Origin: Lytechinus pictus
Lineage: Eukaryota
Length of the DNA stretch: 64,000 nt
NCBI RefSeq assembly: GCF_037042905.1
Contig: NC_087251.1
Location: forward strand, 2,234,001-2,298,000
Direction of reading: 5' to 3'
This document shows, one piece after another, positions 27,601 to 29,296 of the stretch. The translations under genes and the position numbers were made by a program. The notes beneath the pieces were generated by a model. That model had not been told where the DNA came from. It did no database searches and was given only the letters and a program-made list of their open reading frames with translations. Each line of letters starts with the position of its first letter. The first letter of the stretch is position 1.

Positions 27601-29296
27601 TTATGGGTATTCTTGCTACTTCAAATCTGGTTGAGATTCCAGCTGATATATATGCTTGGACCGCTGTCTTTATTCTTCCTCTCAACTCCGCACTCAACCC
27701 TTATCTATACACACTCTCAACTGTCCTCCAAAGGCGTCGCAAGGCCAGAGAAAATACTGGTAAAGATCATCTTACCTCCCTCTTCTGTCAACATTTCACT
27801 CTTAAAGACAAATTTTGTAATATTTTACTGCATTTTCATTGTTACTATTTTCATTGTTACTACAATTGGTTCATGTAAATCGATTGAATATAAAAATCCC
27901 TACAAAAAGTAAAATTGTTTTAATCGATATTAATATGTCAAATGGTATACCCATAGCACTACATGTAGATCGGTAACAATCAGAAAGCATAAAAATATAA
28001 CTTCTTTGACATTATTATCAGATTCAATGAGTCTTACACAGACCACGAAGTATAGTGTTGAGCAGACTCAAAGAGAGGAACGTCTAATGGAATACTGCAT
28101 CATATCACATACTTCTCTCAAGCAACATAGACGAATGGAACCAATAACTGATTTCTTCACGAGGCGGGGAGGTTCTTTAGATGATAGAGAAGAACGATTG
28201 GTAGTTCTAGACCTCCGTCGGGCTCTCTGTCATCTCAGAACTTTGGGTGCTGATGAGAAAGAATTAATCCCTGCTAATGTTGCAGTTGAAAGGGTAATCT
28301 TTATCCACAATTGTTTTTTTAGTCCAGTAGTAGTAATGGCTCGGGTTGATATAACAAAAAGAATCTGGTGAATATAATGTTATTTTGCTGTAAAAATTCT
28401 GGTGAATATAATGTTACTTTGCTGTAAAAATTCTGGTGAATATAATGTTATTTTGCTGTAAAAATTCTGGTGAATATATTGTTATTTTGCTGTAAAAATT
28501 CTGGTGAATATAATGTTATTTTGCTGTAAAAATTCTGGTGAATATAATGTTATTTTGCTGTAAAAATTCTGGTGAATATAATGTTATTTTGCTGTAAAAA
28601 TTCTGGTGAATATAATGTTATTTTGCTGTAAAAATTCTGGTGAATATAATGTTATTTTGCTGTAAAAATTCTGGTGAATATAATGTTATTTTGCTGTAAA
28701 AATTCTGGTGAATATAATGTTATTTTGCTGTAATCAAGTAAAGAAGACTGCATGTTCAATAGGAAAAGTAAGTCGGACATAATCAATGAATCAGAATTTG
28801 AACCGGTGATCTACTGTTTGTCTGGCAGTAACTCAACCAACAGGCCATGTCTGGTCAATTCATAGTCACGATGAAAGAAAACCACAACTCTTCTAATTCT
28901 ATTATATTCTGACCTGCCAATTTTACCGTCGCCTTGAACACTAAAATAGCACCTTAGATCAACAAGCAACTTGAGTAACTGATATTAAATTTTCGTCTAA
29001 GAGCTTATTTTTTATTCATTGATCAACTGTCGGCGATGGATTCATAATGCAATATTTTAGTAATTTTATTTCTTATTTACTTGCAGGACCACAGTGGCAA
29101 TCTAACTCGAGCTTTCTTTGTGATGACGAACCCTCTGGATATTAGCAGATTCATTGGACCTAGTAGTTCCAATGAAATACAAACCAAACTAAGCGCTTTA
29201 TTTGACCAGATCCAGGATCCACTGATGACTCCTGTTAAGCAGTTCATCAACACAACTACCGAATCGTTTGATTATGACAAATTGGATGAAGCCTAA
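431..29296 (+). CDS. GRL101: GRL101-like LDLa/LRR-containing GPCR (LGR/RXFP-related), 5'-partial, 29 exons, about 1715 aa in window
   Basis: Phase-consistent AG/GT exons: 431-600, 3889-4011, 4806-4966, 5477-5606, 8072-8219, 8690-8913, 9173-9351, 10358-10550, 10808-11218, 14212-14460, 14806-14890, 15343-15518, 16036-16209, 17285-17401, 18281-18415, 19048-19164, 20058-20204, 20744-20863, 21531-21665, 22061-22163, 23233-23379, 23649-23720, 24531-24602, 25097-25177, 25863-26073, 26441-26970, 27503-27759, 28022-28293, 29087-29296. They join into one open frame ending in TAA. Domains: C-type lectin, Ca-EGF (DFNECL), CUB, LDLa, LRRNT and LRRs, hinge FCC...FSSCDDLL, and 7TM with [16 protein letters not shown] and NSALNPYLY. 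Confidence 0.92.
1467..1538 (+). tRNA. tRNA-like gene with UCA anticodon (putative opal-reading tRNA or tRNA-Glu-derived repeat head)
   Basis: 72-nt cloverleaf: acceptor GTCTCTG/CAGAGAC, D stem GTCT/AGGC, anticodon stem CCGGC/GCTGG around loop GTTCAAA, T stem CCGGG/CCCGG with TTCGATT. A and B boxes are present and T6 follows immediately. Confidence 0.65.
1638..1751. repeat. (TA)n microsatellite
   Basis: Direct reading; a second tract lies at 1275-1306. Confidence 0.95.
3889..4011 (+). CDS. GPCR exon: calcium-binding EGF domain
   Basis: Reads [41 protein letters not shown]; phase 1-1 exon with gtaagt donor. Not in the ORF track. Confidence 0.85.
4103..4390. repeat. (GTA)n microsatellite
   Basis: Direct reading. 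Confidence 0.95.
5975..7851 (+). mobile_element. Decayed, internally deleted hAT transposon (ZMYM1/ZNF862-like transposase pseudogene)
   Basis: TIR-like ends CACTGGCGTAAATCC / GGATTTACGCCAAGTG. Broken ORFs at about 6458-7440 carry a TTF-type zinc finger ([14 protein letters not shown]...*CFDC), then [19 protein letters not shown] and [19 protein letters not shown], with stops and frameshifts. No TSD seen. Confidence 0.85.
10808..11218 (+). CDS. GPCR exon: CUB domain
   Basis: Reads GIIASRLFP...WFLQAP...[10 protein letters not shown]...C...IEV...FC...FLAHY; gtgagt donor. Confidence 0.85.
11948..12880. mobile_element. 933-bp foldback (palindromic) MITE
   Basis: Inverted arms of about 460 bp around a 13-nt loop (12409-12421); termini CACTGTTGGTCAT / ATGACCAACAGTG, flanked by TA on both sides. 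Confidence 0.9.
13772..14053 (-). mobile_element. 3' fragment of L1/Tx1-type LINE ORF2 (zinc-binding region)
   Basis: Reads [22 protein letters not shown], a CxxC...ET..H.F..C motif. Confidence 0.65.
14212..14460 (+). CDS. GPCR exon: C-type lectin domain, N-terminal part
   Basis: Reads [15 protein letters not shown]...TWTDAEEYC...HMVSI...IYIG. Continues in 14806-14890 (FRWTNG) and 15343-15518 (QPD...WRDVPC). Confidence 0.9.
26441..26970 (+). CDS. GPCR exon: TM2-TM5
   Basis: Reads [13 protein letters not shown]...[16 protein letters not shown]...SIDRF...SSVCLALP, typical of the LGR/RXFP/GRL101 7TM region. Confidence 0.95.
27503..27759 (+). CDS. GPCR exon: TM6-TM7
   Basis: Reads [16 protein letters not shown]...[16 protein letters not shown]. 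Confidence 0.95.
28364..28733. repeat. 34-bp minisatellite, about 11 near-identical copies
   Basis: Unit TCTGGTGAATATAATGTTATTTTGCTGTAAAAAT, in the last GPCR intron. Confidence 0.95.

Follow-up and report, generated by a model that had tools for sequence, protein, structure and literature searches.

Type C members of the G-protein-coupled receptors with leucine-rich repeats (LGRs), such as RXFP1/2 and Lymnaea GRL101, carry LDLa modules, leucine-rich repeats and a rhodopsin-type seven-transmembrane region (7TM). A kinase-type domain placed C-terminal to a seven-helix receptor is known from the fusions of G-protein-coupled receptors (GPCRs) with kinases (the 'bigrams' GPCR-TK, GPCR-TKL/K and GPCR-PIPK), in which complete, Pfam-detectable kinase domains are borne on 7TM of other classes. 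The JH2 domain of the JAKs is a full-length kinase fold with its catalytic residues replaced, which lies on the cytoplasmic side of a receptor system, binds ATP and regulates the adjacent active kinase domain, and KIND (kinase non-catalytic C-lobe domain; Spir, PTPN13, KNDC1) corresponds to the C-lobe of the kinase fold (~200 residues, helices D to I), a partial and non-catalytic piece that is reused to bind proteins. The present analysis concerns a receptor gene (~8.6-29.4 kb, + strand) in a 64,000-nucleotide stretch of the genome of Lytechinus pictus (NC_087251.1, positions 2,234,001 to 2,298,000 of the forward strand; hereafter the window), whose last exons encode a cytoplasmic tail with a domain of ~115 residues that is very probably kinase-derived, catalytically dead and truncated.

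Judged from its modules, the receptor is a giant LGR-type GPCR of the rhodopsin class, labelled GRL101-like. Its protein, P0009 (2237 aa; source name 'uncharacterized protein LOC129265611 [Lytechinus pictus]'), and the relative P0004 contain F5/8-C, CUB, C-type lectin, several LDLa, leucine-rich-repeat and rhodopsin-type 7TM modules, with Pfam matches of P0009 to Ldl_recept_a (3.3e-29), LRR_8 (4.6e-6) and 7tm_1 (8.9e-33). P0009 therefore has the LDLa repeats, leucine-rich repeats and rhodopsin-type 7TM of type C or GRL101-like LGRs, and several family members are labelled 'GRL101-like' by NCBI; the CUB, C-type lectin and F5/8-C modules are additional to the type C architecture. In a quick tree of the 7TM the window's clade stands apart from the protostome GRL101-like proteins, and among the proteins of the set, those of relaxin-receptor-like and protostome GRL101-like type showed no comparable tail domain, their tails of 44-108 residues giving E>1 with a hidden Markov model (HMM) of 12 kinases.

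Like the GPCR-kinase fusions, the receptor in the window has its kinase-type part C-terminal to seven helices; it differs in its 7TM, which is of the rhodopsin class and LGR type, and in a kinase part that is truncated and dead and escapes Pfam, P0009 giving no kinase hit and a coral relative matching over only 75-139 of 258 profile positions. In contrast with JH2, the tail domain is short (~115 residues) and without strands 1-3 and helices G-I, and no active kinase domain adjoins it. Its extent, from the helix C region to strand 8 without the distal C-lobe, differs from that of KIND as well; no KIND family appeared in the Pfam scans, from which weak hits were filtered and to which no direct profile comparison was added.

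GPCR-kinase fusions have been described from protists, choanoflagellates and sponges, none of them functionally characterised according to PMC12716839. PMC10463195 speaks of 'sea urchin GPCR-TMKs', whose identities were not found in its supplements; the tail family may overlap with these proteins. No such tail domain is mentioned in the portions consulted of two papers on ambulacrarian LGRs (PMC8286064, PMC11863921), and no description of a kinase-like tail on LGR/GRL101-type receptors was found in the full-text literature, a coverage outside which most subscription journals lie. Within this coverage, no printed description was met of a truncated pseudokinase remnant fused to an LGR-type GPCR and conserved from corals to sea urchins.

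Tail exons and transcript

The 3' part of the receptor gene was read as follows.

27503..27759, + strand: exon for transmembrane helices 6 and 7 (TM6, TM7; NPYLY) and the start of the cytoplasmic tail, ending in phase 1 (G 27759); spliced contigs match from 27502/3
27760..28021, + strand: intron of 262 nt, GT..AG, absent from the spliced contigs of 3 runs
28022..28293, + strand: exon for the linker and the core of the kinase-derived domain, from the translation and the hhalign, AlphaFold and fold-match ranges
28294..29086, + strand: intron of 793 nt, GT..AG, phase 0, absent from the spliced contigs
29087..29296, + strand: last exon, with acceptor AG at 29085-29086 and TAA stop at 29294-29296
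29297..29420, + strand: start of the 3' untranslated region; contigs of runs X1, X2 and X19 reach at least 29420

The translation of 27503..27759 matched Pfam 7tm_1 at E 1.3e-6. The exon 28022-28293 is preceded by the acceptor AG at 28020-28021, its first two bases complete the codon GAT (Asp) with G 27759, and it ends in phase 0 directly 5' of GT 28294-28295. Both junctions (27758/9->28021/2 and 28292/3->29086/7) were present together in one spliced contig in each of three runs from the same organism, X1 and X2 belonging to one study and X19 to another; the two gaps are GT..AG, the contigs continue past the stop, and they are RNA-like by their junctions, none of the listed source runs being recorded as RNA. 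From ~6% of a further run, X21, of raw RNA, 0 reads were obtained, which does not bear on the splicing. The joined 159-residue product is an exact substring of P0009 (residues 2079-2237, the C-terminus), and P0004, a 1481-aa relative with a transcript-type source, is continuous across both junctions. The two last tail exons are spliced and transcribed.

An earlier note on this DNA, made from the sequence alone, had quoted tail residues that direct reading and translation recovered at their positions in the window; the junctions 27759/28022 and 28293/29087 that it predicted are those of the spliced contigs, and its tail of about 160 aa after TM7 corresponds to 1+90+69 = 160 residues counted from the junction codon to the C-terminus. 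Within the receptor gene, the final intron contains a 34-bp minisatellite (28364-28733; 10.9 copies, 98% matches).

Profile-level homology to protein kinases

For the profile comparisons, a 21-row alignment of the tail family with the window's protein as its first row (A2) and an alignment of 12 kinases from the same genome (A3) were used; the 12-kinase HMM was likewise made from 12 complete kinases of this genome. When a profile of five tail sequences was compared with the 12 own-genome kinases by hhalign, a score of 35.5 (P 3.6e-5) was obtained, the segment PITDFF...VAVERDH being paired with helix D, helix E ('YlH'), the catalytic loop 'HrDlKp.N' and strand 7. None of 300 column-shuffled controls came up to it (mean 12.5, sd 2.6, max 22.5); with the tail profile reversed, the score was 12.6. 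The comparison of A2 with A3 gave Prob 95.6% and P 1.2e-8 over 85 columns, tail residues 13-97 being aligned with kinase columns 40-135 and the match beginning in the helix C region. With a family built by iteration from echinoid tails alone (33 domains, 32 proteins), Prob was 96.9% and P 1.4e-10.

In a search of 177,635 distinct PDB sequences with the A2 profile, 1193 matches were obtained at E<=1, the best 60 of which were all kinases, with MAPKAPK3 (1.2e-6), MNK1 (1.9e-6) and IKK-beta (2.2e-6) at the top; KSR, VRK3, JAK1 and TYK2 were also among the matches listed. Homology of the tail family to kinases is therefore found at the profile level. The order of kinase subdomains that the earlier note had recognised by eye stands above chance in the shuffled and reversed controls, and the type of profile search that it proposed (HMMER/HHpred) detected kinase similarity, at the level of the family profile, on the same segment. 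As for the extent, subdomains V-VII were correctly placed, but the match is slightly longer, beginning in the region of helix C and ending with a predicted helix at the place of helix F.

Predicted structure of the tail

The tail was numbered with the Asp of the junction codon as residue 1. A first AlphaFold model, from a 4-row alignment, was folded over residues 15-115 with a predicted local distance difference test score (pLDDT) of 70-87, and the model based on A2 had a mean pLDDT of 81.5, a predicted template-modelling score of 0.69 and a pLDDT of 83-96 over residues 30-110. The helices (H) and strands (E) of the A2 model are H5-24, E27-29, H30-35, E39-41, H42-49, H55-74, E87-91, E97-104, H107-111 and H120-133, and were assigned as follows.

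Residues 5-24, exon 28022..28293: long helix, paired by hhalign with the helix C region
Residues 27-29 and 39-41, exon 28022..28293: strands predicted by AlphaFold
Residues 42-49 (ITDFFTRR), exon 28022..28293: helix D
Residues 55-74, exon 28022..28293: helix E, bearing the invariant D64
Residues 75-86, exon 28022..28293: catalytic-loop remnant
Residues 87-91 (VAVER), exon 28022..28293: strand 7
Residues 97-104 (LTRAFFVM), exon 29087..29296: strand 8
Residues 107-111, exon 29087..29296: short helix, followed by a low-confidence linker at 113-119
Residues 120-133, exon 29087..29296: helix modelled at the place of kinase helix F, followed by an acidic end

The amphipathic pattern of the last helix is conserved in the paralogs.

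Both models were searched without bias against 48,161 PDB representatives, and the best 50 rows of each search were inspected, kinases being judged by title. With the first model, 48 of the 50 rows were kinases, pseudokinases or kinase complexes (Z 4.2 to 6.9), the other two being unnamed chains of axonemal doublets, and the matches covered strands 4/5 to strand 8 (PknB 69-163, Mnk2 140-231). The A2 model gave kinases or pseudokinases in 48/50 rows and was superposed on Mnk2 with Z 7.5 and a root-mean-square deviation (rmsd) of 2.2 A over 75 residues and on PknB with Z 6.6 and rmsd 2.2 A over 72 residues, its fold matches extending to model residue 128. The predicted models can thus be superposed on kinases, over the middle third of the fold only. 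In the PDB, Foldseek matched neither model at E<=0.001; its non-significant list was dominated by kinases for the first model and consisted of kinases in all rows for the A2 model (best E 0.12, probability 0.94). Feature neighbours with an assigned family in the ESM-Atlas were Pkinase/PK_Tyr fragments (0.84-0.88), which were taken as a lead only. Structure prediction and structure search, likewise proposed in the earlier note, accordingly returned kinase-like fold lists from two models, with Foldseek itself giving no significant match.

Elements retained and elements lost

The domain begins ~20 residues after the junction of the TM7 exon and retains the helix C region, strands 4/5, helix D, helix E, the backbone of the catalytic loop, strands 7/8 and the predicted helix at the place of helix F. 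The Gly-rich loop and the VAIK lysine were not found: the hhalign match begins at kinase column 40, and TM7 is separated from strand 4/5 by only ~40 residues, so that there is no room for strands 1-3. In the catalytic loop, E-K-E-L-I-P-A-N of the window stands against H-R-D-L-K-P-x-N, Pro83 and Asn85 being kept and the HRD motif being lost. The position of the HRD Asp is occupied by Glu in the window and by R, K, N, S, E, D or T across the family, and most relatives have H-G-x in place of H-R-D. At the place of DFG, where the family has a motif R/K-A-F/Y in about the corresponding position, R-A-F is found in the window and G-F-G in the coral, the DFG Asp being replaced by Ala or Gly.

The protein ends 56 residues past strand 8 and the distal C-lobe is absent, so that of DFG, the activation segment, APE and helices F to I a single predicted helix at the helix F place is present, and a complete bilobal pseudokinase fold was not found. 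None of the tails of 76 relatives that were scanned matched significantly beyond position 148 of 256 of the kinase HMM, and no kinase match at E<=1e-10 lies within the window, the nearest listed being ~880 kb away on the contig. The losses agree with the earlier note, which had listed the catalytic Asp, DFG, the Gly-rich loop and the VAIK Lys as missing and had taken the C-lobe to be truncated. Since the Gly-rich loop, the VAIK Lys, the HRD Asp, the DFG Asp and the distal C-lobe are all missing, neither canonical ATP binding nor phosphorylation is expected. The tail domain is a conserved middle piece of the kinase fold, neither an enzyme nor a complete pseudokinase.

Paralogs and relatives

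The genome gave 66 matches to the TM6-7 exon, and 30 loci of ~3.2 kb around such matches, together with 12 downstream 10-kb stretches for loci with split exons, were examined. Two paralogs on another contig share both tail exons, their introns agreeing in position and phase, as read directly from their splice sites, and a broader family model placed the domain-bearing exon at five more loci, giving at least 8 in the genome; with the same model, the domain was absent from 5 of the 12 downstream stretches and from all loci of the intronless type. L041, a paralog in the same genome, matched PF07714 at E 1.4e-3. The last intron of paralog C (L003 1800-2700, G000:C9) is full of short degenerate 'AACTGGAA/CCAGTTGG'-type repeats.

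For the wider family, 84 receptors were taken from the last homolog search and the tails of 85 proteins were cut after TM7, of which 76 had >=30 residues. An HMM of five echinoid tails matched 25 of the 76 at E<=1e-3, and a further two followed at E<=2e-3; among these were sea cucumbers, starfish, brittle stars, a crinoid and the hemichordate Saccoglossus. The 12-kinase HMM matched 14/76 at E<=1e-3, namely three Acropora receptors (4.6e-9 to 1.1e-6, kinase positions 17-141), sea cucumbers, Saccoglossus, a brittle star and crinoids. The two sets are chained through the sea-cucumber protein P0037, which was matched by the echinoid HMM at 5.8e-9 and matches the kinase HMM at 2.7e-7. In total the domain was found in 32 of the 76 tails, from echinoids, sea cucumbers, starfish, brittle stars, crinoids, the hemichordate and the three Acropora corals. 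Alignments of the relatives show the kinase signature '..L.FLHxxGIIHGxI..ENIIV'. By its own sequence the coral protein P0053 passed the Pfam threshold for PF07714 (PK_Tyr_Ser-Thr; 24.6 bits against a cut-off of 23.1, E 1.8e-5, profile 75-139 of 258), and the sea-cucumber protein P0033 matched PF07714 at E 1.5e-3 and PF00069 at E 4.6e-3.

The suggestion that relatives may retain a fuller kinase domain was borne out in part: the coral match at positions 17-141 includes part of the N-lobe, but the coral domain, in which an Arg is aligned in place of the VAIK lysine, is also dead, and 0/76 tails have a complete domain. The long tails (380-458 residues) of P0011, P0019, P0022, P0075, P0077 and P0085 gave no further kinase match. 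P0011 (GRL101-like, Lytechinus pictus; the model of paralog B) has a 419-residue tail in which the segment from TM7 through the domain occurs twice in tandem, and differs from the genome copy by one residue; the tandem segment looks like a gene-model or assembly duplication.

In the quick tree of the 7TM (FastTree, unrooted, 76 rows), presence of the domain required 6 changes, as against 24.8 when shuffled. A nested clade of 19 related receptors has short tails without the domain. D64, in helix E, is invariant in A2, and Ala100 is found in 19/19 of the A2 rows that cover its column.

Interpretation and alternative explanations

Taken together, these data are very probably best explained by a shortened, dead kinase remnant, which would be kept as a non-catalytic module. 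The taxonomic spread, the eight paralogs with conserved introns and the invariant Asp of helix E suggest that it is retained for a purpose. The most likely role, argued by analogy and held at somewhat less than an even chance, is one in docking or regulation: the remnant would be retained under the receptor as a non-catalytic protein-interaction or regulatory module, as are other receptor pseudokinase domains, and upon activation of the receptor it could recruit a cytoplasmic partner or pair receptor tails.

Several observations weigh against this explanation. Between P0009 and P0004, identity is 75/98 (77%) in the domain, 34/44 (77%) in the C-terminal rest, which is probably disordered, and 273/299 (91%) in the 7TM; the domain is thus no better conserved than the tail end and less so than the 7TM, so that constraint in this lineage appears modest. 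The H-G motif kept by other members is gone from the window's echinoid clade, and some related receptors, among them the nested clade of 19 and the protostome GRL101-like receptors with their short tails, are without the domain altogether, which argues against strong constraint. These points could be accounted for if the domain were a kinase-derived but functionless relic that drifts and survives only because it does no harm, any function of the tail being carried by other features such as arrestin phosphorylation sites. We consider this improbable, since the domain is kept in 32/76 tails from corals, a hemichordate and all five echinoderm classes and in at least eight paralogs, with conserved intron positions, one invariant Asp, one Ala in all covering rows and a core that is confidently predicted over residues 30-110, and neutral sequence would not remain recognisable over such a time.

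Direct searches with single sequences likewise count against a kinase origin. No kinase family was found by Pfam with the exon products (E<=10), with the tails of P0004 and of P0007, a receptor of Diadema setosum (E<=10), or with the whole of P0009 (E<=0.1); the 12-kinase HMM gave a non-significant E of 0.73 against P0009. The protein of the window is therefore not a member of a Pfam kinase family by its own sequence. By phmmer, 0 matches were obtained among PDB sequences, and the P0004 tail gave 5 matches among 1.84 billion representatives, none of them a kinase. Apart from the protein of the query itself, these comprised a genomic fragment from the same species, P0007 (with 35% identity across the tail) and two proteins of tandem repeats, which were regarded as spurious. 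Since the protein of the window has no direct kinase match, its homology rests on profiles, transitive links and predicted structure. The fold scores are middling (Z <=7.5, best Foldseek E 0.12), and Z <8 can, by the caution of the search tool, reflect a common arrangement; the fold argument accordingly rests on the uniformity of the hit lists and their agreement with the sequence tests. No solved kinase core lacking helices G-I is known to us, and the model may accordingly be over-regularised.

On the strength of these negative searches and modest scores, the tail might be taken for a small alpha/beta domain unrelated to kinases, its resemblance being due to convergence and to AlphaFold completing a familiar pattern. 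This is very unlikely, as the tests that use no structure return only kinases (the best 60 matches of A2 in the PDB, from 1.2e-6; hhalign P 1.2e-8 to 1.4e-10), a coral member has an above-threshold Pfam match, and the chain through P0037 is tight. An ordinary lineage-specific, largely disordered tail, which was the initial reading, was rejected when the later structure predictions and profile evidence overturned it. Lastly, that the tail keeps a kinase-type activity (nucleotide binding or phosphotransfer), perhaps completed by lobes of another polypeptide, is scarcely credible: some pseudokinases bind ATP and Asn85 and Pro83 of the catalytic-loop pattern survive, but the Gly-rich loop and VAIK region are absent, the HRD Asp is Glu, the DFG Asp is Ala or Gly, the protein ends soon after strand 8 and the window is free of kinase matches at E<=1e-10.

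Possible origin and significance

With the tail of coral P0053, the top PDB sequence matches were chains of JAK1, TYK2 and JAK2 (best 7t6f_A residues 664-722, E 2.6e-7), which we take to be JH2 pseudokinase constructs; 7t6f_A was among the fold matches of the A2 model (Z 5.3), and in one JH2 alignment JAK1 JH2 reads VHGNV at the place of H-G-x. The ambulacrarian profile, in contrast, ranks CAMK-type kinases (MAPKAPK3, MNK) above the JAKs, so that the two point to different kinase groups of origin. A bolder reading, which we think rather unlikely, is that the tails are the remains of an ancestral eumetazoan receptor in which an LGR-type sensor was joined to a domain of the tyrosine-kinase group, in the cnidarian-bilaterian ancestor; the survivors, in corals, hemichordates and echinoderms, would be pseudokinase modules that recruit cytoplasmic kinases or switch them allosterically and so give a G-protein-independent output, and JAK JH2 would be the closest solved look-alike of the coral form. 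If true, this would bear on an old puzzle raised in PMC8286064, namely why hormones of the insulin/relaxin type, though related, act through receptor tyrosine kinases as well as through LGRs.

A module of kinase descent on LGRs of the rhodopsin class, conserved from corals to sea urchins, would extend the theme of GPCR-kinase fusion into eumetazoans, and would add an unrecognised intracellular domain, and with it a handle on signalling, to a large family of orphan receptors. As a minimal and stably conserved fragment of the kinase fold, the domain is of structural interest. For annotation, a dedicated profile could capture the domain, which is invisible to Pfam in most members.

Other features of the window and contig

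The following features were found outside the tail exons.

43050-44782, - strand: exons of a Cys-loop ligand-gated ion channel; the open reading frame (ORF) 44204-44782 matches Neur_chan_LBD (2.3e-20) and Neur_chan_memb (9.6e-10)
49497-51991, - strand: retroelement of the long interspersed nuclear element type, with Exo_endo_phos (3.4e-8), RVT_1 (5e-28) and zf-RVT
60479-61465, + strand: another fragment of a reverse transcriptase, RVT_1 1.9e-17
6383-7483, + strand: ORFs within the receptor gene or upstream of it, one of them matching DUF4371 below the threshold (E 4.8e-7, 30.3 bits against 32.1)

The ORF 43050-43541 (- strand) gave no Pfam match, and the ORFs at 6383-7483 are possibly a transposase-derived insertion. 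On the contig of the window, but far from it, 11 or more near-identical matches to the kinase domain follow one another in tandem with ~4 kb spacing (G000:C7:28966763-29009091). Trinucleotide and other low-complexity microsatellites at 4000-4500, 31400-31850, 41000-42800, 48800-49300 and 52400-53100 give rise to spurious long ORFs in several frames.

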